From contig CM000153.2 of the NCBI GenBank assembly GCA_000004695.1, positions 4,640,001 through 4,704,000 of the forward strand: a stretch of 64,000 bases of DNA. The letters are read 5' to 3'. Both the position numbers and the translations under genes were made by a program. This stretch comes from Dictyostelium discoideum (lineage: Eukaryota). Below are positions 8,341 through 32,491 of the stretch, one piece after another; position 1 is the first letter of the stretch, and every line of letters starts with the position of its first letter. The notes below the pieces were generated by a model that searched no databases, was not told the DNA's origin, and saw nothing but the letters and a program-made list of their open reading frames with translations.

Positions 8341-8422
8341 TTTAAAAATAAAATATTAATTATAAACAAACAATAAAAAATACTTTTATTATAACAAATA
8401 TAAATAATCCAAATAGTAATTT

Positions 8423-8455
<33 letters not shown>

Positions 8456-8883: not shown

Positions 8884-8918
<35 letters not shown>

Positions 8919-8920
8919 TT

Positions 8921-8950
<30 letters not shown>

Positions 8951-8951
<1 letters not shown>

Positions 8952-9433
8952 TGAAATTACTATTTGGATTATTTATATTTGTTATAATTTTCTCAGCAAT
9001 TAATTCTCAAAATATTGTTCAAAGTCCATTTAATTATTTTGAAATTTCAAATGCGTTTTGTGGAAATGTAATTACAACATATCAAATAAATGCAGAAAAT
9101 AATGGTTGTCTTAGATCATGTGAAGATACCAATGTATCAGCCAATTTTGTTAGAATAGTTCAAACAACAACCAATAATAATACTTTTACTGCCACAGAGT
9201 ATACTGATTCCACTTGTACAAATTTACCAGCTACCAATGGTCAAACATTTACATTCACATGTCAATATGATAATAATCAAGTTACACTTGATAATGGTCA
9301 AAGAGTAATATGTTATGATTTAAATACAAAAGCTCCAATTCCAAAGAATGTTAATGATAGTTCAGCATCAAGTAGATTAATTATTAGTTGTTCAATTTTA
9401 TTCCTTGGTTTCATTATTGCTTTATTATTATAA
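8951..9433 (+). CDS. PsA-like secreted/GPI-anchored protein, a paralog lacking the PTVT spacer.
   Basis: A 160-aa ORF with signal peptide MKLLFGLFIFVIIFSAINSQ, conserved Cys spacing and NTFTATEYTDSTC..QTFTFTC resembling the PsA N-domain, and a hydrophobic C-terminal tail (LIISCSILFLGFIIALLL). Confidence 0.6.
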
Positions 9434-9528
9434 GATAATAATTTTTTTTTTTAAAAAAAAAAAAAAATAATAAAAAAAAAAAGTTTTAAATTAATTATTT
9501 TAAAATAATATTATAAAATATATTTTAT

Positions 9529-11430
9529 TTATTTCTTCTTTTTATTTCCACTACTAACACCTGAAGAAGGTACAGCTTGAGCATGTTTAGTTTCTTTTAT
9601 ATGTTGGAATAATTTATTTCTACTTGGAAATTCACCTTTGCAAACATTACAAAATAATGATTCACCACTACCACCAGTTTGACCTTGTTGTTGTTGTTGT
9701 TGTTGTTTTTTCTCTTCTTTCTTTTCTCTTTTTTCTTTTGCTTTACCTTTACTCTTTGTTGTTGTTGTAGCTGATGTTGTTGTGGTCGTTGTAGTTGTTG
9801 TGGTATTTTTTTTATTATCTTTTTTATTATCTTTTTTAACTTTTTTATCTCCATCCTCTTCCTCATCTTCTTCTTCATCCTCATCATCATAATCATCATC
9901 CTCACGGTCTTCATTATTACTATCTTGTTCACTCTCATTTTCATCATCTTGAATTTTATTTTCTTTTTCTTCTTTTTCTCTTTGTTCTTTTAAATTTTTC
10001 TTTTTTTCTTTTGTTAAAACAAAATTCTTTAACATTGAAGTTACTAATAAATCATCTTCATCTTCAGAATTTAAATTATCATCATCATCATCATCATCAT
10101 CATTTGATAAATTTTTATTTTCTTTTAAATCTTCTTCTTCTTCTTCCTCTTCTTCAGATTCTATAAACTTTTGAGGTTTTGATTTCTTTTTATTTTTATT
10201 TACTAAACCAAAAACAAATTCATCACTCTTTTCATTAAACATTTGTGAATTTATAACTTTTTTTGATTTCTTTTTAGCTTTTTTAGATTTCTTTGATTTT
10301 TTATTTTTATTATTATCTTCATCATCTTCATCTTCATCCTCATTACTATCATTTCCATTGGTATTATTATTATTACTACTATTATTATTACTATTATTAT
10401 TACTATTATTATCTTCAGGTAATAATTCATCATCTAATGAAACAGCTTTTCTAATTCTAGCTAATTCTTGTTTATGTTTATTTGAATTTTGATGATTTTC
10501 TAATTGACCTTCAGATTTAAAAGCTTTATCACAAATTATACAAAAATTTGAATTATTTGAATTATCTTGATAAAGATTATCATCATCATCTTTATAGAGA
10601 CCTTGTTGTTTGGCAAGTTGATATTCTCTTTGTTTCTCTTCTTTGAATTTTTTAATTTGTTTTTGTCTTTCTTCTTCATCTAATTGTTTTTGAATTTCAG
10701 CTTCTCTTTGTTTTCTTTCAGTTTCTTCTAAACATTTCTTTTGATATTCTGTTATTCTCTTATCATGATTATAGATGAATGATGCTAAATGTCTAACCCT
10801 TTCGTTGTAGGCTGATCTTGCTTTCGATCTTTCCTTTTGATTCTCTTTCTCCATTAAACGTTTGATTTGTCTATTTGGTGCATCTGATAAATGGTAGAGA
10901 TCAGATGATGTGAATTTCTTTTTTGTTACAAAATCTTTCCAAAAACTGTAAAATTTTAAAACCTCTGCAATCGGTGTTGTTGAATCACCAAATTTTGGTG
11001 GATGGTGGTGATATTCGTTGATGGTTTCTTCACCTTCTTCGATTTTGTCAATGATTTCAAAAATTCTTGAATAAATTTTAAAGAAACCAGTTTCATCATT
11101 ATCATTGAATGATGTGAAAATCGATGTATTGAAATATGGCCATAAATTAATTTCATCATCATCGTCATCACCATCACCTGAACCACCTCTACCACCACGT
11201 AAAATCGCTTCCCTATGATCATCATACCATTTTCTTTCATTTGGATCTGATAATACTGTATAAGCATTATTAATCTCTTTAAATTTCTCTTCTGCAATTG
11301 ATAATTGATGTTGATTCTTATCTGGATGCCACATTAATGCTAATTTTCTATAAGATATTTTAATTTCATCTTGTTTTGCTGATTTTTCAATACCTAATAC
11401 TTCATAATAACATCTTAATTTTGTATTCAT
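9529..11430 (-). CDS. DnaJ homolog subfamily C member 21 (DNAJC21/Jjj1-like): an N-terminal J domain plus two C2H2 zinc fingers.
   Basis: A 633-aa ORF with a J domain (YYEVLGI..WHPDKN HPD motif), a charged KE-rich middle, and two C2H2 fingers ([25 protein letters not shown] and [24 protein letters not shown]). This is the DNAJC21 architecture. Confidence 0.8.
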
Positions 11431-13099: not shown

Positions 13100-15469
13100 A
13101 TGGATCAGTTGGCAGAATTAAGAAAACAAAGACATTTGGAATATTTACAAAAAAAAGAGAAAGAAGATGCAGAAAGATTAGAGCTTGAAAGAATTCAAAT
13201 AGAAAATGCTGAAGCTTTAAGATTATTAAATCCAAATAATGAAAATCTTGAAGATGAAATTACTGCAACCACCACCACCACTACCACCACTACCACAATG
13301 ACAAATAATGATATAGAATTTAATGAAGAAGAAGAAGAAGAAGAAAATGAAGAAGAAGAGGTAGAAGAGGAAGAGGTAGAAGAAGAAGAAGAAGAAGAAA
13401 ATGATATAGAAGAAGAAGAACCAAATTTTAATGGTCCACCATTACCTCAACCACCTGTTTATCAACCAATTTTCAAACCCCATGCAACAAATCATCATTA
13501 TGGTCATTATAATAATAATAATCAACCATATTTCCCACCAGTATTTAATCCAAATCTATTTGGTGGAGGTGGTCATCATGGTCCAAATCATAATATATTC
13601 AATCATGGTGGAATTCATAATAATGCAGGACCAGGTTATTTATTAAACTCTGATAATAATAATAACAATAATAATTATAATAATCCATTTACATTATCAA
13701 ATAATAATAATAATAATAATAGTCCACCACAATCAACTGAACCAACAACAAAAGAAGAGAAAAGATCAGCATTTTTAAATTCAATTGAGAGTAGATATAA
13801 TAAATCACCAGAATTAGTATCAGTGAATAATGAAATTGATAAACAAAAACGAAAAATAATTCATAGAATACCAAAAGATTATTCAGTAAAGAAATTGGTT
13901 GATCTATGTTTAGCAAAGATGTCAATTGATTTAACATTATTTCAATCTCAATTAAAGTTAATGTCTGGTGAATTAATTCAAAGATTAATTGAATTGATGG
14001 TATCATCTAATCGTTTAACTAGAAAGAAAATGGACCAAATCGTTGCAAGTGGTGCTCGTATCTACTCATTGGACCTTAGTCATCAATTTGCAGTTGTAAA
14101 TAATGATTTCCTTTTAAATTGTTTCAAATACATGGCTGAATTATCAAATGTTTATTTTAGAAATTGTGAAAATCTAAATGATATTGGTTTACAAATTTTC
14201 CGTCAACCAAATTTTGAAAAAAATTTAAAAACTTTAGATTTAAGAGATAATCGTATTACTGATGTTGGTATTAGAAATTTAAAAGGTAAAAATATTTTTA
14301 ATTATTTTATATATTTTTATAAAAATAAAATAAATACTAATTTATTTATTTATTTATTTATTTTTTTATTTATTTATCTAAATAGGTTTATTAAATTTAG
14401 AAGAATTATATTTAGGATCAACAGGATGTACAGATATAGGTTTAGCATTATTATGTAATTTATTAAAATTAAAAACATTAGATGTATCAAAATGTAATAT
14501 CACAGATTCTTCAATGGATATTATTTGTAGATTTACAGAACTTAAATTCTTATATCTATCTGGTACTCAAGTAACTGATAAAGGTATAAATACAATTTCA
14601 AAGTTACCAAACTTAATTCAACTTTATGTTTCAAATTGTTTAAGAATTACAAATCAATCTTTATTCTTTTTAGCATGTAAATATATCTATATAAATTTAT
14701 TTTATTAATTATTGTTGGTTGGTTGTTTATTTTTATTTAAAACTTTAACAATATTAATAATCTATTTTTTATCATAGATTTAGGTAAAACATTAAAATTA
14801 TTAGACATTTTTCAAACAAAGATTGGATTAAATGGATTTATTCAATTAAGAATGTTTAAACAATTACAATTTTTAGTATTACCAGGTAGAGATTCGATTA
14901 ATGATGCAACAATTGGTCATTTAAATTCATTAAGTAATTTAAGAAAATTGGATTTATCAGATTATCGTAATATCTCTGATTTATCACCATTGACAAATTT
15001 ACAAAGTTTAACAGAATTGTTACTATCAAATACAAAGATTTCTGATAATTCAATTATAAATTCAATAAAGACAATGGATTCATTGGAAGTGTTATCATTA
15101 AATAAAACTGAAGTTACAACTGAAGGTGTCTCTCAATTAGTAAATTTAAATTTAACATCACTTTCATTATCATCAACTAAAATAGATGGAAAATCATTAT
15201 ATTATTTAGGTCAAATGAAATCATTACAAAAGTTGGATATCTCTTTTAATGACATCACAGATAATAGTATGGATTATTTGAAACCAATCGCCGATACTTT
15301 GTCTCATATTGATCTTAGAGGTACTGATACTTTTCGTTCTCTCCATATGTTTAATGAAAAAATTGTAAGACCCCCTGTAAAAAATATCATAAAATCACCA
15401 AATAATAATGAAGAAGATGGTGATAATAATGATGATGATGATGATGATGAAAATGAACCACTTTGGTAA
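13100..15469 (+). CDS. Leucine-rich-repeat (RNI/FBXL-like cysteine-containing LRR) protein with N-terminal coiled-coil, poly-Thr and acidic (E-rich) regions. Three exons: 13100..14285, 14386..14676 and 14778..15469.
   Basis: Intron 1 runs from GTAAAA at 14286 to aaatag at 14385. Intron 2 runs from GTAAAT at 14677 to atcatag at 14777. Phase is 1 at both junctions and joins ORFs 13100.., 14514.. and 14852.. into consecutive LRRs (LKTLDLRDNRITDVGIRNLKG|LLNLEELYLGSTGCTDIGL...LACKY|LGKTLKLLDIF...). Confidence 0.7.
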
Positions 15470-15552: not shown

Positions 15553-16260
15553 TTATATTATTATTAACAATAATATTATTGTTAATAATAATAATAATAA
15601 ATTTAATTTATTAATTTTTTTAAAAAATAATGATGGCGGTGATGATATTGATGTTGATAAACTATTAAATTGAAAATGCCTAATTTCTTTTAAAATTATT
15701 GAATTTGATTTAAATGATTTTATATTTCTATTATCACATGCTTTACAATTTTCATTACATGATTTAAAATAAATTATATCACCCTCTTCTGAACAATAAT
15801 ATTTTTTATTACCTTCAAGACAAGTATTATTTGAAAATGATTCAACTGTTGTAACTTCTTTTGATAATTTTATAACATAATTACATAATCCATCCAATAG
15901 TATTGGGGAGGTTGTATTTGAAATATTTATAATTACTGATGAATTATCATCATATTTAATACACTTATTTAAGTCATAGAATATTATTGGATTGTAATTA
16001 TCGCAATGGGAATCTTGACTAATGAATATGTTGGGTGAGTATCCTAATCTTTCTATTTCACCTTTATTTATATCACCAACTTTCATATATAACCCATCCT
16101 TTTGACATGGTGTTATGGTTTTTATAAATGTTGCATTACCTTTACATTCGAAATTATTATTTTCATATACAAAAAATGAAATCTTATATCCATTTATTTT
16201 TATAACAAATATTAATAATAATAATATAATATTATATATAAAATTTATTTTAATCATCAT
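15553..16260 (-). CDS. Secreted Cys-rich protein with a C-terminal hydrophobic (GPI-like) tail. It is a paralog of the gene at 30086-30910.
   Basis: A 235-aa ORF with a signal peptide, conserved Cys pattern (CKG...C..C...CNENCKAC) and a hydrophobic C-terminus. Alignable to the 30086-30910 protein. Confidence 0.6.
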   Translation of the reverse strand: MMIKINFIYNIILLLLIFVIKINGYKISFFVYENNNFECKGNATFIKTITPCQKDGLYMKVGDINKGEIERLGYSPNIFISQDSHCDNYNPIIFYDLNKCIKYDDNSSVIINISNTTSPILLDGLCNYVIKLSKEVTTVESFSNNTCLEGNKKYYCSEEGDIIYFKSCNENCKACDNRNIKSFKSNSIILKEIRHFQFNSLSTSISSPPSLFFKKINKLNLLLLLLTIILLLIII

Positions 16261-17115
16261 TCATTAATTAAAAATTGACAATAAATAATTAATATTAAAA
16301 ATAAAAATAAAAATAAAAATAAAAACAAAAAATAAAAATAAAAATAAAAATAAAAATTATATTTGAAAAAAAAAATAAATAAATAAATTAAATAAATTAA
16401 ATAAATAAAAATAAAAAAAAAAAAAAAAAAAAAAAAGTGTATGTGTGTGTCTATTTTAAAAAATTATTTTTATCACTCTGTAAAAATATTTTTAATTCAT
16501 TCCAAAACTCATAATTAACAAAAGATAAAAAATTTAGATATGTATATAAAAATAAAATTTATTATTTAAATAATAGATTTCAATTTATTGGCAAAATAAC
16601 CTCTTTTTTTTTTATATTAAATAAAAAAAAAAAAAAAAAAAAGAGTATTTATATTAGGTTGTGATGGTAATAAATCAAAAAAACTTATTACTACATAAAA
16701 ATTATTAAATTTTATTTTTTAATTGAAAAATTGTTCTTTTTTTTTTTTTTTTTTATTTTTTATTTTTTTTTTTTTTTCCCCAATACTTAATTTAATCTAA
16801 ATTGGTGAATTTAAAAATAAAAATAAAAATTAAAAAAAATTAAAAAAAACACCTCACTCATTTTTTTGGGTGTGGAAATGAGATTTAATCTTATTATTTT
16901 TAATTTTTTTTTATTTAAAAAAATTAAATTTGGGAAAATAAAAAAAAATTAAGCACATTAATATTTTTTTTTTTTTTTTTTTTTATTCTTATTTTATTTT
17001 TATCCTTTTTGAACACTAAATTATTATTTTTTTTATATATATCAAACACACACTTCACACACAAACACAAACACCATTTTAAAACATAACATTTCTTTTT
17101 TCCTCTCACCACGCA

Positions 17116-17529
17116 ATGTTTTCTCCCAGGGATAGTTTCAATTTCTTTGATGACCCAACTTTTGGTATTAACCTCCAACCTCTCACAACGACGTATGTTG
17201 AAGTGGAAGATTTGGAAAATGATATCAAAAGATTATCAAGTCTGTTCTATGAAGAGACTGTTCATCTTAGTTATAAATTACCCAATTCTTTAAAGAAGTC
17301 TCGAAATTTCTTACAACCATACCTTAATATTAAACCTATTAAACATTCAAGACAAAACTATACACAATTAACAAACTATATAGACCAATCAAAAGACTTA
17401 GTTCAAGAGTGTAAGTCTTGTTTTAGTGATAATGTTGGTGTCAATGATATATTAAGGGATATACTGCGTGATATGGATAGGTTAAAGGTACATTATTGTT
17501 CAGATGGTGGTATATTTTCATCTTTATAG
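17116..17529 (+). CDS. Small uncharacterised protein (137 aa), copy 1 of a five-member tandem family. Its GC content is atypically high for the locus.
   Basis: Intact ORF MFSPRDSFNFFDDPTFGINLQPLTTTYVEVEDLENDIKR...KVHYCSDGGIFSSL. It is preceded by a CA-rich element (17044-17075) and is 90-95% identical to copy 2. Confidence 0.6.
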   Translation: MFSPRDSFNFFDDPTFGINLQPLTTTYVEVEDLENDIKRLSSLFYEETVHLSYKLPNSLKKSRNFLQPYLNIKPIKHSRQNYTQLTNYIDQSKDLVQECKSCFSDNVGVNDILRDILRDMDRLKVHYCSDGGIFSSL

Positions 17530-17850
17530 TTAATACTATAAAAATGGATTTATGCAATCATATTTTAATTTTTACTATTTATATATTCTTTATTTCATTC
17601 TTTTTTTTTTTTCTCTTTCTCTTTTATTTTTGTTTTTTTTCTTTTGTGTAACAAAAATACAAACTTCCAAAACTAAAAAAAAGTAAAAAAACAAAATCAA
17701 ACAAAATCAAACAAAATCAAACAAATAATTTAAAAATCAAATACAAAATCAAAAACAAAGGTAACAGAAAAAATGAAAAAAAAAACAAAATGAAATAAAA
17801 AATATATAAATAATAAAAAAAAAGTTTATCAAACAATACAAATTAAAAAT

Positions 17851-17914
17851 ATCCTTCCTTCTAATCAACTTTCAATGTATGAATATACATTGAAGGTTGA
17901 TTAGAAGGGAGGAT
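17851..17914. repeat. Near-perfect inverted repeat (hairpin) with about 30-bp arms and a 4-nt loop. It is followed by a short second palindrome (aatgtatcggatacatt) and a conserved 200-bp block C.
   Basis: Left arm atccttccttctaatcaactttcaatgtat against reverse complement of the right arm atcctcccttctaatcaaccttcaatgtat gives 28/30 matches. The same element recurs at 20296-20360, 27512-27575, and (degenerate) at 22620 and 25378-25458. Confidence 0.8.
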
Positions 17915-18459
17915 ATTCAAATCAAATCCCAATGTATCGGATACATTCCTTAGTTAGAATGAAGGGTTTTCTGTTTAGTTTAAAAGAAAAGTGAAATTCT
18001 GTTGCAATATCGATATCTGGTGTCTTAGAGTCAAACTATTTTCTCAATGGCATTCCAATCAATTTCCAAAATACATTCCAGTTTTTCAATCAAAGAAATT
18101 CTATAAATAAACCATTTTAATCCTCTTAAAAAATATTGTTTTGATTTTTTTTTTTTTTTTTTTGATTTTTTTTTTTTTTTAGTTAAATTACTCCTATTAT
18201 TTAAAAAATATTTTTTAACTTCCTTTTATCATTTTTAAAATAATAATTATACCAAAATGTATTTTTCATTTTATAATAGTGAAAATAAAAAATCATTATT
18301 GATGGAATATATTTTAAAAAATGAAAGGACAAAACTAATCCATTTTTTTTTTTTTTTTTTAAGAATATTGGTTTTTTTTTTTTTTTTTTAATCTTATTCA
18401 TAATAAATAGAATAAAATAATAAATACTAATATCTTTTTTTTTTAATTATATCTTTATA

Positions 18460-18718
18460 TTTTTTAAAATTAAATGGTGAACTAATAACATTGCAAATCA
18501 AGGCAAATGCAAATAATGTATATGAAAGTGGTGATCAATGTGGTAATTCAACATTTACTTCATTTAATTACAATAATAATAATGTTAAAACATTTATTAC
18601 AATGTCACCTCATCCTGGTAATGTAGTTGAATTTTATAAATATTATACAAATTTTAAAATTAATGGAATTAATTTCAACAATTTCACAAAATGTAAATTA
18701 AATAAAAAAATTAAATAA
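18460..18718 (+). pseudogene. Decayed 5' fragment of the beta-helix surface-protein gene (array unit 1).
   Basis: Similar to 28530-28930 (GELITLQINANGNNVY.SGDQCGNSTFT ... KTFIT.SP..GNVVE.YK...FKINGINFNNF) with an internal deletion. Confidence 0.6.
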
Positions 18719-18740
18719 AATAATAATAATAATATAATAA

Positions 18741-18827
18741 AATAAAATTAAATAAAATAAAATAAAATAAAATAAAATAAAATAAAATAAAATAAAATAA
18801 AATAAAATAAAATAAAATAAAATAATA
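18741..18827. repeat. (AAATAA)n microsatellite.
   Basis: Visible hexanucleotide run after the unit-1 surface-gene fragment. Confidence 0.9.
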
Positions 18828-19531
18828 CAATTGTAACTTCTTTTGATAATTTTATAGCATAAATTAAAATTAAAATAATTCTTGAAAAAAAAAAAATTAA
18901 ATAAATATATAAATAAATAAATAAAAATAAAATTGAAAATAAAAAGTGTATCTGTGTCTATTATAAAAATTAATTTTATCAATCTGTAAAAATATTTTTA
19001 ATCAATTTTAAAACTCATAATTAACAACAGATAAAAAATTAAGATATGCATATATATAAAAAAAAAATTATTATTATTATTAAATAAAAGATAACAAATT
19101 AACCTTCTATTTATTACTATATAAAATTTTTTATTTTACATGAATAATTGGTTTTTTTTTTTTTTTTTTTTATTTTTTTTTTTTTTTGTTTAATATCAAG
19201 ATTGGTGAATTTAAAAATAAAAATAAAAATTTAAAAAAAATTAAAAAAAAACACCTCACTCATTTTTTTGGGTATGGAAATGAGATTTAATCTTATTATT
19301 TTTTTTAATTATTTTTTATTTTTATTTAAAAAAATTAAATTTGGGAAAAAAAAAAAAATTAAGCACCACATTAAGGGTTTTTTTTTTTTTTTTTTTTTAA
19401 TTCTTTTTTTATTTTTATCCTTTTTGAACACTAAATTAAATTAATTATTATTTTTATATATATATATATATATATCCAACACACACACCATTTTTAAAAA
19501 ATAACATTTCTTTTTTCCTCTCCACCACGCA

Positions 19532-19945
19532 ATGTTTTCTCCCAGGGATAGTTTCAATTTCTTTGATGACCCAACTTTTGGTATTAACCTCCAACCTCTC
19601 ACAACGACGTATGTTGAAGTGGAAGATTTGGAAAATGATATCAAAAGATTATCAAGTCTGTTCTATGAAGAGACTGTTCATCTTAGTTATAAATTACCCA
19701 ATTCTTTAAAGAAGTCTCGAAATTTCTTACAACCATACCTTAATATTAAACCTATTAAACATTCAAGACAAAACTATACACAATTAACAAACTCTATTGA
19801 CTATGCAAAAGTCTTTGTTCAAGAGTGTACGGCATGTTTTGATGATAATGTTGGTGTCAATAATTTATTAAGGGATATACTGCGTGGTATGGATAGTTTA
19901 AAGGTGCATTATTGTTCAGATGGTGGTATATTTTCATCTTTATAG
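19532..19945 (+). CDS. Small uncharacterised protein (137 aa), family copy 2.
   Basis: Intact paralogous ORF. The upstream (TA)n and CA-rich element (19476-19490) are conserved. Confidence 0.6.
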   Translation: MFSPRDSFNFFDDPTFGINLQPLTTTYVEVEDLENDIKRLSSLFYEETVHLSYKLPNSLKKSRNFLQPYLNIKPIKHSRQNYTQLTNSIDYAKVFVQECTACFDDNVGVNNLLRDILRGMDSLKVHYCSDGGIFSSL

Positions 19946-20592
19946 TTAACACTATAAAAATGGATTTATGCAATCATATTTTAATTTTTACTATTTATAT
20001 ATTCTTTATTTCATTCTTTTTTTTTTTTTCTCTCTTTTATTTTTGTTTTTTTTTGTTTTTTTTTCTTTTGTATATAACAAAAATACAAACTTCCAAAACT
20101 AAAAAAAAGTAAAAAAACAAAATCAAACAAAATCAAACAAAATCAAACAAAATCAAACAAAAAATTTAAAAATCAAATACAAAATCAAAAACAAAGGTAA
20201 CAGAAAAATTGAAAAAAAAAAAAAAAAAAAAAAAAAAATGAAATAAAAATATATAAATAATAAAAAAAAGTTTATCAAACAAAACAAATTAAAAATATCC
20301 TTCCTTCTAATCAACTTTCAATGTATGAATATACATTGAAGGTTGATTAGAAGGGAGGATATTCAAATCAAATCCCAATGTATCGGATACATTCCTTAGT
20401 TAGAATGAAGGGTTTTCTGTTTAGTTTAAAAGAAAAGTGAAATTCTGTTGCAATATCGATATCTGGTGTCTTAGAGTCAAACTATTTTCTCAATGGCATT
20501 CCAATCAATTTCCAAAATGCATTCTAGTTTTTCAATCAAAGAAATTCTATAAATAAACCATTTTAATCCTCTTAAAAAATATTGTTTTGATT

Positions 20593-20635
<43 letters not shown>

Positions 20636-20924
20636 TTCAATTACTCCTATTATTAAAAAAATATTTTTTAACTTCCTTTTATCAATTTTAAAATAATAAT
20701 TATACCAAAATGCATTTTTCATTTTATATAAGTGAAAATAAATAATCATTATTCATGGATTATATTTTAAAAAATGAAAGGACAAAACTAATCCATTTTT
20801 TTTTTTATTTTTTAAAATTTTGTTTTTTTTTTTTTCATCTTATTCATAATAAATAGAATAAAATAATAAATACTAATATCTTTTTTTTTTTTTTTTTTTA
20901 ATTTTAGCTTTAAATTTTTTAAAA

Positions 20925-21382
20925 TTAAATGGTGAACTAATAACATTGCAAATCAATGCAAATGGAAATAATGTATATGAAAGTGGTGATCAATGTGGTA
21001 ATTCAACATTTACTTATAATTCAATAAATGCAATTTCTTATTTTGAAACAATTAAAGTATATAATCAAACCTCAAAAATTTAAATTTATCCACATTGAAA
21101 TTACTTTAGATGACTCTTTATAAAATTGGTAATCCATTAATACTTTTTCAAAATAAAATTGAAATTTCGCCTTTAAATCAAAAATCTAAAAATGTAATCA
21201 TTGATGATTCTTCAATTAATAACAATAATAATAATAATAATACTAAAACATTTATTACAATGTCACCTCCTCCTGGTAATGTAGTTGAATCTTATAAATC
21301 ATATACAATTTTTAAAATTAATGGAATTAATTTCAACAATTTAACATTTACAATTGTAACTTTTGATAATTTTATAGCATAA
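20925..21382 (+). pseudogene. Decayed 5' fragment of the beta-helix surface-protein gene (array unit 2).
   Basis: Collinear with 28520-29000. There are in-frame TAA stops (for example ATT TAA ATT at about 21080). Confidence 0.6.
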
Positions 21383-22032
21383 ATTAAAATAAAAATAATA
21401 TTTGAAAAAAAAAATTAAATAAATATATAAATAAATAAATAAAAATAAAAATAAAAATAAAAAAAAAAGTGTATGTGTGTCTATTTTAAAAAATTATTTT
21501 TATCGCTCTATAAAAATATTTTTAATTCATTCCAACTCATAATTAACAACAGATAAAAAATTAAGATATGTATATATATAAAAAAAAAAATTATTATTTT
21601 TATTTAAATAATAGATAACAAATTAACCTCATTTTTATTACTATATAACAGTAAAAAATAATATTAACACTTTTTTTTTAAAAAAAAAAAAAAAAAAAAA
21701 ATAATAAAAAAAAAAACTGATCACTTAATTTTAGGTGAAAAAAAAAAATAAAAAATAAAAAAAAATAAAAAAAAAATATATATTTTGTTAAGGAATTTAC
21801 AAACAACAAAAAAAATTAATTTTTTTTTTTTTTTCTATTTTTTTTTTTATTTTTTTTATTTTTTTTATATTCACCTAAAATTTTTTTTTTTTTCTCATTT
21901 TTTTTTTTTTTTTTTTTTTTTTATAACACTATAATTAAATTAATAATAATAAAATAATAAAATAATTTAATTGTTTTTTTATATATCAAAAACACATATA
22001 TAATATTTTAAAACTCAAACTTTTCTACTACA

Positions 22033-22341
22033 ATGTCTTCTCAAGAAGGTGACCTTCCCCCTCTCAGCGATTACCCAGATGCAACTAAAGTGGATGAATT
22101 ATGGTGTAAAATCATTGCCCAATCAACTACTCCCCTTGAAATAACCAATTTATTGAACCAGTTTTCCCATTTCTTAAAGCCATGCCAAGTTAACTCACTT
22201 TCAAAGAACCCACAAACGAAAAAATTACTAGAACATTTAGAAAAGTGTAGGGGCCCATGTAATAATGATAATACCAACAATTTATTAAGCGATATGATAC
22301 AGAATGTCCAAAATTTAATTATATTATTAATGATCCCATAA
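22033..22341 (+). CDS. Divergent small-protein family member (102 aa), copy 3.
   Basis: It occupies the same slot in unit 3. It has weak but collinear similarity (CRGPCNNDNTNNLLSDMIQNVQNL versus CKSCFSDNVGVNDILRDILRDMDRL) and the same downstream flank (tatagttaactactataaa...). Confidence 0.4.
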   Translation: MSSQEGDLPPLSDYPDATKVDELWCKIIAQSTTPLEITNLLNQFSHFLKPCQVNSLSKNPQTKKLLEHLEKCRGPCNNDNTNNLLSDMIQNVQNLIILLMIP

Positions 22342-22949
22342 AGCAATAATAATTATATCATGTAATGGTATATTTTCAACTTTATAGTTAACTACTATAA
22401 ATATGGATTTATGCAATCACTATAGTTTAATTTTTATTATTTAAATTTTATTTATATAATATTTATTTCATTCTTTTTTCTTTGTTAACAAAAATACAAA
22501 CATCCCACACAATACAAAATCAAAAACAAAGATAAAAGAAAAACAAAAAAAATGAAATAAATAATATATAAATAATAAAAAATTAAATAATAAAAGTCAA
22601 ACAAATTAAAAATATGCTTTGATACATTCGTTTGTTACAAGGAGGGATTTTCTGTTAAATTTCGTTGCAATATCTGGTACCTTAGAGTCAAACTATTTTC
22701 TTGGTGTCATTCTAGTCAATTACCTAAATGTTTCCTGTTTCAATCAAAGAAATTCTCTAAATAAATTTAAAAACCTTACAAAAACTTTTTTTTTTTTTTT
22801 TTTTTTTTTATTTTATTTTATTTTTTTTTTTAATTTTAATTATCCATAATAATCAATCAAAACATTAAAAAAAAAAAAATAAAAAAAAATAAAATGATAA
22901 CATGTATATATATATTTTTTTAATTTTAACTTTTTATTTTTTAAAATTA

Positions 22950-23198
22950 AATGGTGAACTAATAACATTGCAAATCAATGCAAATGGAAATAATGTATAT
23001 AAAAGTGGTGATCAAAGTGGTAATTCAGCATTTAAATGTAATTCAATAAATGATGCAATTTCTTATTTTGAAACAATTAAAGTATATAATCAATCATTGA
23101 TGGCACCGATTAATAACAATAATAATACTATTAAAATATTTATAACAATATCACCTCTCCTCCTCTTGGTAATATGGTTGAATAAAAATAAAAAATAA
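22950..23198 (+). pseudogene. Decayed 5' fragment of the beta-helix surface-protein gene (array unit 3).
   Basis: ORF 22902..23198 retains the signal peptide and GELITLQINANGNNVYKSGDQSGNSAFKCNSINDAISYFETIKVYNQS. It then skips about 50 codons present in the full gene. Confidence 0.55.
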
Positions 23199-23745
23199 AA
23201 AGTGGTTGTGTATCAATCTTAAAATTTTATTTTATCACTCTGTAAAAATATTTTTAATTCATTCCAAAAATCATAATTAACCACAGATAAAAAAAATATA
23301 TTGTTTAAATAATAGATATTTTATTACCAATTAACCTCACTTATTTTGCTATATAAAAAGTGTTGATTTATATTATTACTTTAAAAAAAAAAAATAATAA
23401 CATTGGGATTTAATTTTATTTTTTACTCCAAAAAATTATCATTATTTTTTTTTTTTTTTTTTTTATAATATTAAATTAAAAAAAATAAATAAAATTAAAA
23501 AAACATGTTCTCTTATTTTTTTGGGTTAAAATGAAAATGAGATTTAATTTAATTATTTTTTTTTTCCACTCCCAAAATTTTTTAATTTTTTTTTATTTTT
23601 TTCATTTTTAAATTTTTTTTTTTTAGACACCATTTTTTTTTTTTTTCATTCCTTTTTTTATTTTCATCCATTTTGCACTATAATTATTATAATTATTTTT
23701 AAACACACACACTATTTTAAACATTTCTTTCCTTTCTTCCACGCA

Positions 23746-24138
23746 ATGTTTTCTACCTGGAATTTCTTTGATGACCCTCCTGGTATTAACCTCGAACCTC
23801 TCACAGCGACCTACGTCGAAGTGGAAGGGATAGAGAATGATATCAAGAGAGGATCGAGTCAATTCTATGAAGATACTGTTCATCTTTGTTTTAAATTACC
23901 CAGGTTTTTAAAGAAATCTCGCAATTTCTTACAGCCGTACCTTGATATTAAACATTCGAGACTAAACTATACACAATTAACAAACTCTATAGACTATTCA
24001 AAAGTCTTTGTTGAAGAGTGTATAGCATGTTTTGGTGATAATGTTGGGGTCAATAATTTATTAAAGAATATTCTGCGTGATATGGATAGGCTAAAGGTAC
24101 ATTATTGTTCAGATGGTGGTATATTTTCATCTTTATAG
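23746..24138 (+). CDS. Small uncharacterised protein (130 aa), family copy 4.
   Basis: Paralogous ORF (MFSTWNFFDDPPGINLEPLTATYVEVEGIENDIKR...KVHYCSDGGIFSSL) with a short N-terminal deletion relative to copies 1 and 2. Confidence 0.55.
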   Translation: MFSTWNFFDDPPGINLEPLTATYVEVEGIENDIKRGSSQFYEDTVHLCFKLPRFLKKSRNFLQPYLDIKHSRLNYTQLTNSIDYSKVFVEECIACFGDNVGVNNLLKNILRDMDRLKVHYCSDGGIFSSL

Positions 24139-24228
24139 TTAAAACTATAAAAATGGGTTTATACAATCATAGTTTAATTTTTATTCTTTATTATTACTAT
24201 TTCATTCTCTTTTTTTTACTTTCACCTT

Positions 24229-24285
<57 letters not shown>

Positions 24286-24419
24286 TTACAAAATACAAAC
24301 ATCACACACAACAAAAAATAACAAAAAACCAAAACAAAATCAAACAAAATCAAACAAAATCAAATATGAAGGGTAAAAGAAAAAATGAAAAAAAAAAAAA
24401 ATAATCAAAAAAGTCAAAC

Positions 24420-25560
24420 TATACAAATTAATAATATCCTTCCTTCTAACCAACCTTCATTGATATATCCGACGATAATACACCGAATGTTCAACAGAAG
24501 GAAGGAATTCAAATCTACCTCAATGTATCCTACGAGGATACATTGCGAGCTCCCAAGGATATTCAAATCTATCTCATTAGAATGAAGGATATTCAAATCT
24601 ACCCCAATGTATCCTATGAGGATACATTGCGAGCCCCCAAGGATATTCAAATCTATCTTCAATGAATCCGATGGATAATATTGGACACTCATTAGAATGA
24701 AGGATATTCAAATCAACCCCAATGTATCCTACGAGGATACATTGCGAGCCCCAAGGATATTCAAATCTATCTTCAAAGTATCCAATTGATAATACCTTGA
24801 AAACTAATTAGAATGAAGGATATTCGCCCCAATCTTCAATGTATCCGATAGGATACATTGAACCCTCTCAAGAAGGATATTCAATCTATCCTCAATGTAT
24901 CCAATTGATAATACCTTGAACACTCATTAGAATGAGGGATATTCAAATAAACCTTCGATGTATCCGATAGGATACATTGAACCCTCACCGAAATGATATT
25001 CAAATCTATCTTCAATATATCCAATGGATAATATATTGAACACTCAGTAGAAGGAAGGATATTCAAATCAACCTTCAATGTATCTGATACATTGAACCCT
25101 TATCAGAAGGATATTCAGTCTATATTCAATGTATCCGATGGATAATACATTGAACACTCAATAGAAGGAAGGATATTCATATCAACCGGTCAGATACATT
25201 GAACACTCATTAGAATGAAGGATATTCAAATCAATCTCCAATGTATGGGATAAATTCATCGGTTAGAAGGAAGGATATTTAATCAACCTTCAATGTATTC
25301 GATCGGATACATTTAACGCTCACTAGAAAGAAGGATATTCAAATCAATATCCAATGCATCCCATCGGCATACAGAACGCTCACTAGAGAAGGATATTCAA
25401 ATCAACCTCCAATGTATTGGATACATTCGTTGATTTGGGTCCTTCTCTAGTGAGCGTTCAATGTATGCCGATGGGATGCACTGAACGCTGATTAGAAGGA
25501 AGGATATTCAAATCAATGCCAATGTATGGAATACATTCATTGGTTAGAAGGAAGGATTTA
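24420..25560. repeat. 1.1-kb satellite-like tandem array of 55-60-bp units (an AB dimer of about 112 bp). Each unit carries the short palindrome CAATGTATCCGAT(A)GGATACATTG and a GGATATTCAAATC motif.
   Basis: By eye there are about 20 successive units. The array ends in a larger inverted repeat (cgctcactagagaagga ... tccttctctagtgagcg, 25378-25458). It sits where other units have the single hairpin. Confidence 0.8.
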
Positions 25561-25954
25561 AAAACAGAAAAAACTAAAAAAAGAAAAGTGAAATTCCATG
25601 TGCCTTGGAGTCAAACAATTTTCCCATTGAAATTCCAGTCAATTACCAAAATGCATTGCTGTTTCAATAAAGAAATTCTCTAAATAAATTTCAATACCAT
25701 TTTAATCCTCTTAATCAAAACAATAGTTTTTTTTTTTTTTTTAAATTAGTCCTTTTAGATTTTATTAAATAAAAAATATTTTTTTAACATCCATTTAATA
25801 ATAATAATTAAACCAAACGTATTTTTCATCATTAATAATAAAAAATGAAAAGACTATTTTTTTTTTTTATTATTATTCATATTAAATAGTATAAAATAAT
25901 AAATAATAATATCTTTTTTTTTTTAATTTTTAACTTTTTATTTTTTATAATTAA

Positions 25955-26450
25955 ATGGTGAACTAATAACATTGCAAATCAATGCAAATGGAAATAATAT
26001 GAAAGTGGTGACCAATGTGGTTATTCAACATTTACATGTAATTCAATAATTAATGCAATTTCTTATTTTAAAAAAATTAAAGTATATAATCAATCCTCAG
26101 AAATTTAAATTTATCAACCATTGAAATTACTTTTAGATGATTGTATATATAAAATTGGTAATCAATAATATTTTTTCAATATAATATTGAAATTTTGCCT
26201 TTAAATCAAAAATCTAAAAATGTAATCATTAATGATTCTTCAATTAATAACAATAATAATAGTATTAAAACATTTATTATAATATCACCTCCTGGTAATG
26301 TGGTTGAATCTTATACAATTTTTTAAACTAGTGGAAATAAATTCAACAATTTCACATTTACAATTGTAACTTCTTTAAATAATTTTTAACATAATTACAT
26401 AATCCATCCAATAGTATTGGTGGGGTTGTATTTGAAATATTTATTTTTTA
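25955..26450 (+). pseudogene. Decayed 5' fragment of the beta-helix surface-protein gene (array unit 4), fused to about 60 bp derived from the antisense strand of the Cys-rich gene at 15553-16260.
   Basis: 26382-26450 (aacataattacataatccatccaatagtattggtggggttgtatttgaaatattta) matches 15870-15935. The upstream part matches 28530-28960 with indels. Confidence 0.55.
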
Positions 26451-26464
26451 CATGTATAAAATTG

Positions 26465-26523
<59 letters not shown>

Positions 26524-26772
26524 CTAGTATGAATTTAAAATAAAAATTAAAAGCAATTAAATTAAAAAATCACTTCTCTCATTTTTTTAAGTTTTGTGTA
26601 AAATATCTCGAGATTTAATCTAATTATTTATTTTTTTTTTTTTTTTTTTTAATTTTTAAATTTTTTTTTTTTTTTTTTTCACCTTTAAATTTGATTTTTT
26701 TTTTTCATTCTCTTTGAATAAGACCTTACTGTTTTAATTTTAATATTTCTTTTTTTCCCATCCACCACGGCA

Positions 26773-27159
26773 ATGTTTTCTCCCGGGGATAGTTTCAATT
26801 TCTATGATGACCCAACTCTTGGTATTAACCTCCAACCTCTCACAACGACGTATGTTGAAGTGGAAGATATAGAGAATGATATCAAGAGAGTATCAAGTAT
26901 GTTCTATGAGGACACTGTTCTTCTTAGTTATAAATTACCCGAGCATTTAAAGAAATCACGTAATTTCTTACAGCCATACCTTGATATTAAACATTCAAAA
27001 TTAAACTATACACAACTAACAAACTCTATTGACTTTGCAAAAGTCTTTGTTAAAGAAGGTATAGCTTGTTTTGGTGATAATGTTGGTATCAATAATTTGT
27101 TAGAAGATATATTGCGTGATATGGATAGGTTAAAGGTATATTATATTGAAATAGTGTAG
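26773..27159 (+). CDS. Small uncharacterised protein (128 aa), family copy 5. The C-terminus is altered and it may be decaying.
   Basis: Paralogous ORF ending ...RLKVYYIEIV instead of KVHYCSDGGIFSSL. Confidence 0.45.
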   Translation: MFSPGDSFNFYDDPTLGINLQPLTTTYVEVEDIENDIKRVSSMFYEDTVLLSYKLPEHLKKSRNFLQPYLDIKHSKLNYTQLTNSIDFAKVFVKEGIACFGDNVGINNLLEDILRDMDRLKVYYIEIV

Positions 27160-27431
27160 CATATTTTCATTTTTATAGTTAACATTATAAAAATGGATTT
27201 ATGCAACAATATTTTAATTTTTATTATTATTTTAATTTTTATATTATTTATTTCATTCTTTTTTTTTCTTCTTTTTTTTCTTTATTTTTTTCTTTTTTTT
27301 GTTTGTACTTCCCACACAACAACAAAAAAAAAAAAAACAAAAACAAAAAAATAACAAAAGATAACCAAACAAAATCAAACAAAATCAAACAAAATCAAAT
27401 AAAATCAAAAACAAAGGTAATAGAAAAAATG

Positions 27432-27468
<37 letters not shown>

Positions 27469-28006
27469 AAATATATAATATATAAATAATAAAAAAAGTT
27501 TATCAAACAATATTAAAAATATACTTCCTTCTAATCAAACTTCAATGTTTGGATACATTGAAGGTTGATCAGAAGGAAGAATATTCAAATCCCAATGTAT
27601 CGGATACATTCCTTGGTTAGAATGAAGGGTTTTCTGTTTATTTTAAAGAAAAGCGAAATTCTGTGGCAATATCGACATCAGGTGCCTTAGAGTCAAACTA
27701 TTTTTTCAATAACATTCCAATCAATTTTCAAAATGCATTCCAGTTTTTCAATCAAGGAAATCCCCTAAAATAAATTTAAATACCATTTTAATACATAAAA
27801 ACTGTAACTTTTTTTTTTTTTTTTTTTTTTTTTAGTTCAATTACTCCTATTTTATTAAAAAATATTTTTTAACTTTCTTTTACCATACCAAATGTATTTT
27901 TCATTTTAAATGTAATGAAAATCATTATTTGAAGAATATATTTTAAAAAATGAAAGGACAAAACTTACCCAGATTTTTTTTTTTTGGATTTTCAAGAAAA
28001 AAAATA

Positions 28007-28037
<31 letters not shown>

Positions 28038-28189
28038 GAGTAAACTTTGTCTTTTTAAATTTTATTAAATAAAAAAATATTTTTTTAACATCTATTTAAA
28101 TAATAATTAAACCAAATTTATTTTTCATCATTAATAATAAAAAATAATTATTATTCAAACAATTTATTTTAAAATAAAATGGAAAGACG

Positions 28190-28410
28190 ATTTTTTTTGA
28201 GGTTTTATAGAAAACCTTCATTTTCTTGAAACACACAATTTTATTTATTTTTATTTTTATATTTTTAAATTTTTTTTTTTTGGGTTTTAAAGAAAAACCA
28301 TCTTTTTCCCAATAACTACAATTTTATTTATTTTTATTTTTATTTTTTTTAATTTTTTTTTTGGATATTTTCTTAAAAACAGACCATTTTGATTTTATTT
28401 TCTATTTTTT
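28190..28410. repeat. Tandem triplication of an about 85-bp AT-rich unit (..gg[gt]tttta[at]agaaaa[ac]c.tc.ttt...caattttatttatttttattttt..).
   Basis: Three successive similar units at 28195-28275, 28282-28360 and 28363-28410, immediately upstream of the full-length surface-protein gene. Confidence 0.5.
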
Positions 28411-28475
28411 TTTTTTTTTTTTTATTTTAATCATTCGATCGAAACATTAAAAAAAAAAAAAAAAAAAATTATAAA

Positions 28476-29993
28476 ATGATAAAATATATTTTTCCATTTT
28501 TTTTAATTTTAACTTTTTATTTTTTAAAATTAAATGGTGAACTAATAACATTGCAAATCAATGCAAATGGAAACAATGTATATAAAAGTGGTGATCAGTG
28601 TGGTAACTCAACATTTACATGTAATTCAATAAATGATGCAATTTCTTATTTTGAAACAATTAAAGTATACAATTAATCATCAGAAATTCAAATTTATCAA
28701 CCATTGAAATTACTTTTAGATGATGGTATTTATAAAATTGAAAATCAATTAATACTTTTTGAATATAATATTGAAATTTCACCTTTAAATCTAAACTCTA
28801 AAAATGTAACCATCGATGGTACCTCAATTTATAACAATAATAATAATAATATTAAAACATTTATTACAATATCACCTCCTACAGGTAATATAGTTGAATC
28901 CTATAAATCCCATAGCATTTTTAAAATTAATGGAATTAATTTCAATAATTTCACATTTACAATAATTTACATTTATAAAACTTATTTAAATGTAGTAGGA
29001 TCATTTGAAAATTGTAATTTTAATAATTTTAAAAGTGAATTTCCAATGTTTTACCTAATTAATAATAATAATAATAACATAATAAGTAATTTATATTATA
29101 ATATAAATTCATCATTTGCTTTAACGAATTGTTCAATGATCAGTAATTCAAATATAGGTTATAATTCATCTATAATTAATAGTAAAAAATTCAGTGTACT
29201 TATTTATCGATCAAAATTCCAATCAATTAATGAATGTAATAATTTTGGTTACTTTTATGATAGTTCTCGATTAACAATTTATAATAGTTCAATAAATAAT
29301 AATAATTGTAAAATAATTTTCAATATAAATAAAATTAATAAGTTAGATGTATTCAATACAAAATTTGAAAATAATAATGGAACAATATTCAATATTAAAT
29401 TTAATTCAAATGAAGGTTTAATTTCAATTAAAAATAGTAGCTTTATCAATAATTATGGTGGTAGTATTATTAATTTAGAATCAAATAATAATATTCCTTT
29501 TGAAAATTTAAAAAAAAATCCACAACTATTTAGAGACTCTACATTTTTTAATAATTCATTCAATGGAAATGGAAGTATAATTAATTCAATTGGTGCTTAT
29601 TTTATTGTTTCTGGTGAATTTGAAAATAATAAAGCATTAAATCACCAAGGTGATTTATTTTATTTACAAGATAGTTATTGTTTAATAGAAGATTCAAAAA
29701 TAAATCAAGTTAATAATTTACCAAGTGGTAAAGGTTCAATAATTTATTTACAAAAATCAGAATTAGAAATATCAAGTGGTAATTTCAAACTAGATGGTTC
29801 ACTTGTTTGTAATTCTTCAAAAATAAAACTTTTACGAAATACAATTGTTTTTAAACCTACTATTGACTGTCAAAATTGTACCTTTAATAACAATAATTAT
29901 TGTGAACTTAATTTTGGAATAAAAAATAAAATATCAATTCTTTTAAATTTAATAATATTATTACTATTATTATTATTATCACTATCAATATAA
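28476..29993 (+). CDS. Secreted/GPI-anchored beta-helix-like surface protein with polymorphic-membrane-protein-type repeats (FxxN and GG[AS]I-like). It is full length but carries an in-frame TAA at 28674-28676, so it is either a pseudogene or N-terminally truncated.
   Basis: ORF 28476..28676 (signal peptide MIKYIFPFFLILTFYFLKLNG...) and ORF 28704..29993 (TTG-initiated in the track) are in the same frame and separated only by the TAA. Repeats include FINNYGGSIIN and FNGNGSIINSIGAYF. The C-terminal tail is hydrophobic ([18 protein letters not shown]). Confidence 0.5.
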
Positions 29994-30085: not shown

Positions 30086-30910
30086 TCAAAGTGATATTAA
30101 TAAAATTAATAATGATACAATTGTTGAAATAATATTAATATTTAAAAAAGAACTAGATGAATCAAAGTCATTTGATGATGATGATGATGATAATGAAGAT
30201 AATTGAGAATCAAAAGAAAATGAAGGAGTTGTATAATTTACAGTTTGATTGATTGGATTTGAATCAGTGAGGAAATTAAACATTTTTAAGGATTTGAAAT
30301 TATCACAATTTGTACTATTTGAAGGATATGTTTGTTTTAAAATACATGATTGCGGTTTACAATCACTTGTTAAACATTCATAAACATTAATTGTCATACC
30401 ATCTTTACCAATACATTCTCTCCTTTGATATCTAATTGTTGTACTATTATTACTATTATCATTTGAAGACGTTTCTAATTTTAATGGATCATTACCAAAA
30501 TTCATTTTAATACATGTATTATTTCTATAAGAATTTATGAAATAATTTTCACAATTAAAATAATTTACTTCATTACAATAGGTATCTATATTTCTTGGAT
30601 TAAACTCTGAATCGTTTATGATATATTGATATGATGTACCATCAGTGTTTAAATAACATTGTTTGGTTTGTACAAATTCTGTTATATCTCGTTCGATTGA
30701 ACATTGATCTTGATTATTAACTTTTGTGATTGCTAATTTACCACCTGCTCCTTTTTGAAAGTATGAATATCTTGAACAATTTGTACTACCAATTGTAAAT
30801 AATAATTCTCCTTTACATAATATATTACTATATTTAATTATATGTACTTCAAATCCAATTATTTTTTTAATTAAAAATATAATAAATATAATTTTTATTA
30901 TTAATTTCAT
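30086..30910 (-). CDS. Secreted Cys-rich protein with Ser-rich stalk and C-terminal hydrophobic (GPI-like) tail. It is a paralog of 15553-16260.
   Basis: A 274-aa ORF with a signal peptide and Cys pattern shared with the 15553-16260 product. Confidence 0.6.
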   Translation of the reverse strand: MKLIIKIIFIIFLIKKIIGFEVHIIKYSNILCKGELLFTIGSTNCSRYSYFQKGAGGKLAITKVNNQDQCSIERDITEFVQTKQCYLNTDGTSYQYIINDSEFNPRNIDTYCNEVNYFNCENYFINSYRNNTCIKMNFGNDPLKLETSSNDNSNNSTTIRYQRRECIGKDGMTINVYECLTSDCKPQSCILKQTYPSNSTNCDNFKSLKMFNFLTDSNPINQTVNYTTPSFSFDSQLSSLSSSSSSNDFDSSSSFLNINIISTIVSLLILLISL

Positions 30911-31664: not shown

Positions 31665-32491
31665 ATGACAATTCTAACCAAACCTCACCAATTACAAAAT
31701 TGTGAAAAATTCCATCCATGGGCAAAAACATGCACATCATCAGCATCACAAATTTGGTTTGCAGTATTCCTTGCAGGTTTAAAACTATACGCACCATTAT
31801 TTTTAGTTCCTGCATTAATATTTAAAAGAAAAAGGTAATAAATTTCATACAAACAACAATAAACAAACAAACAAACAAACAAACAAACAAACAAACAAAC
31901 AAACAAACAAACAAACAAACAAACAAACAAACAAACAAACAAACAAACAAACAAACAAAAAGATATTGAAAGAGAGAAACAATTGGAAATAATAATAATA
32001 ATTATTATTAAAATAATAATTAAATAACATTAATATTAATATGATTTTTTTAATAATAAATTTATTATTTAAAAATTGAAAATAGTATACAATTTTTAGT
32101 ACAAAGAACATTACCAGAAATATTAAGAAGTTCAGTATTTTTAGGAACATATGCAGGTGTATATGCAGGAGCGATTTGTTTAATTAGACGTATTGTAGGT
32201 AGAGATTTAAAATCAATGGCAGCAATTAGTGGTTTCTTTGCAGGTTTATTATCGATTTTAATAGAGAAAAAGAGTAGAAGATCAGAATTGGCTTTATATT
32301 GTTTAAATCAAGCTATTGAAGTAGTTTGGAAAATGGCTGCTGCCAGAAAATTAGTTCCATTATTTAAGAATGGTGAAGTTTTAGTCTATATGATTGCAAG
32401 TTCAATCTTATTGTATTTCTATCAAAATGAACCTGATAGTTTAAGAAGTAATATGAATGGTTTATTAAAATTCTTTATTGGTAAAAATTAA
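31665..32491 (+). CDS. TMEM135 N-terminal-domain homolog (Tim17-like peroxisomal/mitochondrial membrane protein, about 190 aa). Two exons: 31665..31834 and 32086..32491.
   Basis: Exon 1 encodes MTILTKPHQLQNCEKFHPWAKTC...LKLYAPLFLVPALIFKRK. The GTAATA donor is at 31835, the acceptor aaaatag ends at 32085, and phase is 2. Exon 2 encodes ...LPEILRSSVFLGTYAGVYAGAICLIRRIVGRDL...LIEKKSRRSELALYCLNQAIEVVWKMAAARKLVPLFKNGEVLVYMI.... From memory this is collinear with the human TMEM135 N-terminus ([73 protein letters not shown]). Confidence 0.75.
31861..31967. repeat. (AAAC)n / (CAAA)n microsatellite of about 26 units inside the intron of the TMEM135-like gene.
   Basis: Perfect tetranucleotide run visible in the sequence. 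Confidence 0.95.

Follow-up and report, generated by a model that had tools for sequence, protein, structure and literature searches.

A likely tandem cluster of a clade-restricted small gene on chromosome 4 of Dictyostelium discoideum

Tandem gene clusters that evolve by unequal crossing-over, gene conversion, and birth-and-death are known from systems such as the yeast CUP1 array (PMC12637435), which is built of head-to-tail multi-kb units. In Dictyostelium discoideum, the study by Bloomfield et al. (2008; PMC2643946) reports segmental duplications of laboratory stocks that are recent and 15 kb or larger. Here, we analyze a 64,000-nt stretch of D. discoideum chromosome 4 (hereafter the window; GenBank GCA_000004695.1, contig CM000153.2, positions 4,640,001 to 4,704,000, forward strand), in which five units, each 1.8-3.2 kb long, follow one another head to tail between positions 16261 and 28475, an architecture like that of the CUP1-type clusters. 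We consider it likely that this locus is a tandem gene cluster, built on a small gene found only in the clade of D. discoideum, D. citrinum, and D. dimigraforme, and that it arose via unequal recombination. The cluster is ordinary and previously undescribed; it reflects a familiar process and reveals no new type of genetic element.

The repeat structure emerges from several self-comparisons. Two direct-repeat families (D7 and D8) have their first two copies spaced 2416 bp apart, with more copies at 4.2-kb and 3.0-kb steps, while a gapped self-BLAST pairs 16271-19124 with 18649-21648 and extends further long alignments to 23181-24544 and 26435-28028. The gapped self-alignments that span the array are 1.3-3 kb long, and together with the direct-repeat spacing they bear out the 2.4-kb periodicity and the five tandem units that had been proposed in an earlier, sequence-only reading of this DNA. 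When the end of each fragment of the right-hand neighbor (gene X) is taken as the unit boundary, the units, which are roughly 70-99% identical to each other in a window of ~20% G+C, are as follows (ORF, open reading frame):

16261-18688, + strand: unit 1 (U1), with blocks A and B, a 137-aa ORF, block D and (AAACAAAATC)n, block H (hairpin), blocks E and F, and a decayed gene-X fragment (X5)
18689-21354, + strand: unit 2 (U2), with the same block set as U1
21355-23183, + strand: unit 3 (U3), short and divergent, with A, a 102-aa ORF, D3, a partial E, and X5
23184-26364, + strand: unit 4 (U4), with A, a 130-aa ORF, D, H as a minisatellite (~sevenfold in the block map), E, and X5
26365-28475, + strand: unit 5 (U5), with a remnant of the left-hand neighbor C1, a 128-aa ORF, a D3-like block, an imperfect hairpin, E, F, and the native gene-X upstream region

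In a block-by-block BLAST map, the order A-B-ORF-D-H-E-F-X5 is kept wherever the blocks exist. The sequence-only reading had placed the same ordered blocks in each unit; the order holds, but the presence in every unit does not, with A missing from U5 and both B and the hairpin missing from U3. Its simple repeat "(CAAAAT)n" is actually (AAACAAAATC)n, and the motif CACCTCACTC...GGGTGTGG is present in U1 and U2 and in no other unit when up to 3 mismatches are allowed. An independent chromosome-scale assembly (GCA_054883475.1) is colinear with the array at 99.6% (20.5 kb aligned, with 5 mismatches and 73 gap positions), so the array does not result from collapse, expansion, or another assembly artefact, a concern that the same reading had raised.

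Pieces of both neighboring genes lie inside the array, and they carry much of the evidence for its origin. These pieces and the flanking genes are:

15553-16260, - strand: C1, Cys-rich gene of 235 aa, left flank
18437-18688, + strand: gene-X 5' fragment of U1, dead (start codon lost, one stop, 204-bp deletion)
18819-18862, - strand: C1 remnant at the U1/U2 junction, matching 15834-15880 (47 bp) at 87%
20884-21354, + strand: gene-X 5' fragment of U2, dead (start codon lost, frameshifts, one stop)
22894-23183, + strand: gene-X 5' fragment of U3, with ATG retained, frameshifts, and large deletions
25917-26364, + strand: gene-X 5' fragment of U4, dead (start codon lost, stops, frameshifts)
26364-26444, - strand: C1 remnant at the U4/U5 junction, matching 15849-15930 (82 bp) at 94% and abutting the gene-X fragment
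28476-29993, + strand: gene X (DDB_G0286791), right flank, with a signal peptide, N-rich repeats, and a hydrophobic C-terminus
30086-30910, - strand: C2 (DDB_G0286589), Cys-rich gene of 274 aa, outside the array

All four internal gene-X fragments are disabled, in agreement with the decaying 5' fragments of a neighboring surface gene that had been described within the units. The fragments end at gene-X position 28955-28963 in U1, U2, and U4, and also in the orthologous unit of strains ACTFIW and ACTFIR. Antisense Cys-rich remnants had likewise been reported at the unit boundaries; we find them at two junctions (47 and 82 bp), with the other two of the four lacking them. The X-to-C1[312-384] junction also occurs in ACTFIW (15032-15103) and ACTFIR (9646-9710). 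Since the same X end and the same interior piece of C1 recur at the junctions, they point to one founding tandem duplication. The deletions around the junctions differ between units (15880 to 16342 in U2, 15930 to 16707 in U5) and therefore represent independent decay events.

The syntenic locus of D. citrinum contains the leucine-rich repeat (LRR) gene, C1, one small ORF, X, and C2, with a single 2.4-kb interval, i.e. the outgroup is single-copy. The ancestral locus would have had this same arrangement, with C1 (-), one small ORF (+), X (+), and C2 (-). The array would have been founded by one tandem duplication, with its left breakpoint inside C1 at ~15834-15849 and its right breakpoint ~490 bp into gene X, at ~28963. 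The duplicated segment, ~3.3 kb in length, would have included the whole divergent intergenic region, both promoters, the small gene, and 3'-truncated stubs of both neighbors. The D. citrinum locus and the shared junctions demonstrate both this ancestral state and the founding event.

Unit number differs within the D. discoideum complex, with five units in the window, three in ACTFIW and in ACTFIR, and one in cf. discoideum ACTFIZ. The units of ACTFIW and ACTFIR are orthologues of U1, U4, and U5, and U3 is present in neither strain. Trees built from three independent blocks cluster by position and not by strain, giving the groups (U1, U2, FIW1, FIR1), (U4, FIW2, FIR2), and (U5, FIW3, FIR3), and the D. 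citrinum and D. dimigraforme ORFs fall outside all three. Three lineages of the 137-aa type thus appear to post-date the D. citrinum split and to predate the divergence of the strains. Synonymous divergence (dS) is 0.26-0.46 for paralogues vs 0.09-0.17 for orthologues, and 0.037 for the U2 vs the U1 ORF.

U2 shows a mosaic composition. Its block A matches that of U3 at 90% identity and that of U1 at 81%, and its identity to U1 rises from 75-79% to 91-100% at the position equivalent to 16737. These identities mark U2 as a recent chimera, which belongs to the window lineage alone. A poly-T tract at 16737-16777 coincides with two independent rearrangement edges, namely the start of the high U1/U2 identity and the left end of U5, an overlap that suggests homopolymer tracts as hot spots for recombination or slippage. 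After the founding event, unequal homologous recombination and gene conversion between units would have added and removed copies; we infer these later dynamics from orthology by position, copy-number differences, and mosaic units. The U1, U4, and U5 lineages would have come first, with the window lineage later gaining the chimeric U2 and also retaining the divergent U3. These results fit the earlier view of a local segmental array, produced by duplication or unequal crossing-over that captured pieces of its neighbors, given the shared junctions, the single-unit D. citrinum, the copy-number differences, and the mosaic U2. The synteny comparison with other dictyostelids that had been suggested along with that view finds a single unit in D. 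citrinum and copy number that varies among strains, and the description of the array as old and still evolving is sustained by the paralogue dS, by three vs five units, and by the mosaic U2.

The relationships of U3 extend to the cf. discoideum lineages. Its block E is 90% identical to the unit of cf. discoideum ACTFIY, and U3 is colinear with the ACTFIZ unit over a 1.3-kb alignment at 65% nucleotide identity; this colinear alignment is the only part used of a permissive BLASTN of U3 that otherwise returned mostly low-complexity noise. The ACTFIY locus (L005, reverse-complement 7651-9931) is rearranged and contains block A, a gene-X 5' fragment, a weak second A, a degenerate ORF remnant, D3, E, and a truncated X that lacks roughly the first 790 bp, and both the small gene and gene X are seemingly lost there. 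D. dimigraforme (L008 8617-14895) has its single small ORF between X and C2, in the orientation opposite to that seen in D. discoideum and D. citrinum; from this position and orientation, the small gene would have moved or been inverted locally in that lineage.

The feature common to all units is the small ORF, whose copies are:

17116-17529, + strand: copy 1, 137 aa, core of DDB_G0286585
19532-19945, + strand: copy 2, 137 aa, core of DDB_G0286587
22033-22341, + strand: copy 3, 102 aa, divergent, with the FL.P and NNLL.D motifs retained
23746-24138, + strand: copy 4, 130 aa
26773-27159, + strand: copy 5, 128 aa, with a shortened C-terminus

Eight family proteins are found among 5.8 billion clusters, all from D. 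discoideum strains and all at the array locus. A profile search of 1.84 billion representatives returns three matches, i.e. the D. citrinum orthologue, the D. dimigraforme orthologue, and the window's U3 ORF, and the former two species each have a single small-ORF orthologue. A Pfam scan of all ORFs in the window finds no domain in the small ORF; it matches only LRR domains, in the upstream gene, and, below threshold, CfaA_B_C in C2. Copy 3 has 21-25% amino acid identity to the other window and strain copies.

Across three strains, the frame is open in 11/11 copies of the 137-aa type, and the chance of one open 130-codon frame at the local base composition is ~2.5e-5. The ratio of nonsynonymous to synonymous substitution rates (omega; Nei-Gojobori, with Fisher P values) is 0.28-0.39 in four comparisons among the three old lineages of paralogues (P between 8e-6 and 1.5e-3). 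For example, omega is 0.28 for the U4 vs the U5 ORF (95% bootstrap interval 0.14-0.48, P = 8e-6) and 0.30-0.39 for other paralogue pairs, and a comparison of U4 orthologues between strains gives 0.30 (P = 0.01). Every comparison that involves the U3 or the ACTFIZ ORF gives omega ~1. Because the frame is open in all copies of the 137-aa type and omega is low, these data show, at the level of substitution patterns, that the small ORF is a genuine gene under moderate purifying selection. Its product is predicted to be a soluble helical protein. The small ORF has been kept open, while the X and C1 stubs decay by independent deletions, frameshifts, and stops. We tentatively suggest that the amplification probably serves the dosage or the diversification of the helical protein.

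Public gene models within the array look artefactual (17116-18718, 19532-20370, and 26773-27590). In model DDB_G0286585, the U1 ORF is spliced over ~1 kb onto the decayed gene-X fragment, and models DDB_G0286587 and ACTFIT_005327 translate one hairpin arm as the last exon.

Downstream of the ORF, units of the 137-aa type carry a long hairpin or its derivatives:

17848-17917, no strand assigned: hairpin of U1, with 33-bp arms and a 4-nt loop
20294-20363, no strand assigned: hairpin of U2, identical to that of U1
24423-25555, + strand: minisatellite of U4, ~1.1 kb, with ~17 subunits of 49-63 nt and a 119-nt higher-order repeat
27518-27585, no strand assigned: imperfect hairpin of U5, with a folding free energy (dG) of -38.6 kcal/mol for 27507-27628

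The hairpin with 33-bp arms has a dG of -53.5 kcal/mol over 128 nt (-0.42 kcal/mol/nt, z -9.4), and thus falls within the range of stable precursors (below -0.2 kcal/mol/nt and at least 60% paired). It is restricted to D. discoideum units of the 137-aa type, and it was not found in U3, both cf. discoideum lineages, D. citrinum, D. dimigraforme, or the rest of the window. An origin from a neighboring gene was considered and was not supported, as the arms match nothing outside the arrays. The minisatellite derives from the right arm of the hairpin together with a 10-bp mini-hairpin, in U4 and in its orthologues (L001 12737-14209 and L002 7562-8828). Its subunits are of two alternating types (~55 nt and ~62 nt), with Tandem Repeats Finder periods of 54-58, 114-119, and 234, and most of them contain the ~10-bp mini-hairpin (CAATGTATCC...GGATACATTG). 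The minisatellite is also polymorphic in length, with 17 subunit anchors in the window, 23 in ACTFIW, and 20 in ACTFIR. Poly-C runs reach 21 nt in some ACTFIW subunits, an unusual feature for an 80% A+T genome. No Rfam family reaches its gathering score for the hairpin, the sub-threshold matches being generic long hairpins of unrelated plant microRNA (miRNA) families, and a full-text literature search with hairpin sub-sequences returned nothing relevant. Most likely, local inverted and tandem duplication produced the hairpin and the minisatellite as neutral by-products, with a young small-RNA locus at the hairpin being a much less probable alternative.

Among the other noncoding parts, block A occurs four times in the array:

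16437-16640, no strand assigned: block A with a GT-rich head, ~175 bp upstream of the C1 start codon
18953-19101: further copy of block A
21469-21661: further copy of block A
23207-23326: further copy of block A

Its GT-rich head is discernible in U1-U4 and not in U5, and the block, an ancestral noncoding element, is conserved in D. citrinum and cf. discoideum. The non-ORF blocks of the units are regulatory DNA or decaying passengers.

We weighed several other explanations for the array. One is that the small ORFs are nonfunctional and that the array is a neutral intergenic duplication in which frames are open by chance. The family is an orphan with no domain, omega is ~1 for U1 vs U2 and for all U3 and ACTFIZ comparisons, the gene models that the reference places within the array are plainly chimeric artefacts, and the ORF has degenerated in cf. 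discoideum ACTFIY, all of which would be expected under such neutrality. Yet omega is low in the four paralogue comparisons and in the U4 orthologues, D. citrinum and D. dimigraforme have kept their orthologues, and 11/11 frames stayed open while the co-duplicated X fragments gained stops and frameshifts over the same period, so we think this explanation unlikely. An alternative that grants the gene its function makes the array a place where a young orphan gene evolves rapidly and adaptively, alongside a newly born hairpin-RNA locus. Here, the protein may be diversifying under conflict-type selection, e.g. in social/kin interactions or in defence, which would account for the 15-31% amino acid identity seen between close lineages whose flanks are 75-93% identical, and small RNAs from the lineage-specific hairpin and its minisatellite, which follow the ORF at a distance of ~300 nt, might control the family in cis or in trans. 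We regard this reading as distinctly doubtful.

The hairpin RNA could also be the selected product itself, with a miRNA or small interfering RNA locus driving the growth of the array and the small ORF being secondary. Its stability of -0.42 kcal/mol/nt (z -9.4) lies beyond the -0.2 criterion for D. discoideum miRNA precursors, and the miRNA loci of this species are mostly intergenic (PMC6161686); moreover, most of the one-sided stem changes result in G:U pairing on the + strand, and the region is tandemly amplified and length-polymorphic in three strains. However, no compensatory change is seen at any of the 29 stem pairs, conservation of the hairpin does not exceed that of the adjacent E block or the ORF, none of the 12 miRNA loci listed in Table S1 of PMC6161686 matches the hairpin, and it lacks an Rfam match at gathering score. 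U3 and all single-unit species keep the ORF without the hairpin, and the purifying selection acts on the ORF. A hairpin-driven array therefore strikes us as very improbable. Least credible of all is that the unit is a mobile element (a DNA transposon, a composite like a miniature inverted-repeat transposable element, or a retroelement fragment) that was repeatedly inserted or amplified by transposition. A long inverted repeat is present in each unit of the 137-aa type, and D. discoideum is known to have multicopy hairpin elements, thug-S among them (PMC6161686), but the hairpin is internal to the unit and not terminal. Furthermore, neither the remaining 51 kb of the window nor the flanks of seven related loci contain any unit block or hairpin motif, protein homologues occur solely at the syntenic locus in every genome, and no unit ORF has a transposase, reverse transcriptase, or integrase Pfam domain. 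The unit ends are truncated host genes; terminal repeats or target-site duplications were not found there, and the inverted repeats seen are internal or are low-complexity A/T tracts. For the window and the related loci, this bears out the statement of the sequence-only reading that the array is not a dispersed transposon.

Some observations weigh against the tandem-cluster account that we favor, at least in its simplest form. The U3 and ACTFIZ ORFs have 15-31% amino acid identity, vs 57-60% for the D. citrinum orthologue, and a simple timeline fails at this point; either an old paralogue lineage that was lost differentially or a burst of divergence could account for it. In addition, ACTFIY already has the junction between an X fragment and block A, such that the founding duplication may predate the split of the ACTFIY lineage, and the single-unit genomes could be secondary collapses. 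Within the U1/U2 clade, omega is ~0.8-1.2 on few substitutions, and those copies may be relaxed. Lastly, the gene identifiers were not found in a full-text literature search.

The genes that flank the array have their own histories. Gene X, which had been called full-length at 28476-29993, is disabled in the window by an in-frame TAA at 28674-28676, a codon that reads CAA in the intact ACTFIW orthologue. The orthologues of ACTFIW and D. citrinum are both intact (504 aa), and the AX4 gene model bypasses the TAA via a predicted intron to give a 411-aa product. Gene X may be a pseudogene or a strain-specific null allele of the laboratory lineage. C1 is conserved at 89-98% across all strains and species compared. 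The Cys-rich paralogs reported at both ends of the array are indeed there, but C1 and C2 are distant paralogues only, with 27% identity over 130 aa (E = 0.002), and they are ancient ones. Their candidacy as products of the array was ruled out by this low identity and by the presence of both genes in single-unit species.

Elsewhere in the window, a perfect (ACAA)28 microsatellite at 31849-31959 gives spurious minus-strand ORFs of FVCL repeats. A tRNA at 42789-42884 (- strand; Rfam 49 bits, 96 nt) probably contains an intron; an ARAGORN scan of the window reported nothing, this tRNA included. A promoter/terminator scan found no enrichment, and its models are bacterial and irrelevant for a eukaryote.

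The locus offers a clean and datable case of the birth of a tandem gene cluster, with founding breakpoints still legible inside both neighboring genes, a single-copy state that survives in D. citrinum, and three copy-number states within the D. discoideum complex. Errors in the reference annotation also come to light, namely gene models that are chimeric and a predicted intron that conceals a nonsense codon. In addition, the locus reveals a family of small genes, confined to one clade and under selection, that a single block knockout could remove.

Compared with described systems, the hairpin resembles D. discoideum miRNA hairpins and thug-S in being a very stable intergenic hairpin of ~70 nt in an AT-rich context (PMC6161686). 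In contrast to the multicopy thug-S, it is found at one locus only, a comparison made by description and not by sequence, and it has neither a sequence match to the listed miRNAs nor covariation. With the duplications of Bloomfield et al. (PMC2643946), the array shares the organism and the role of duplication as a source of structural variation between strains, whereas its units are 2-3 kb, shared with divergent isolates, and old (paralogue dS 0.26-0.46). The array also resembles the CUP1-type clusters (PMC12637435). As in those clusters, each unit has its own promoter and gene and there is a shared duplication junction, copy number varies among strains, units are mosaic or converted, and parts that are not selected decay to pseudogenes. 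By contrast with near-identical units, those of D. discoideum are old and heterogeneous (1.8-3.2 kb, ~70-99%), and, unlike CUP1, the amplified gene is an orphan with no known selective agent and its units bear the stubs of both neighbors.

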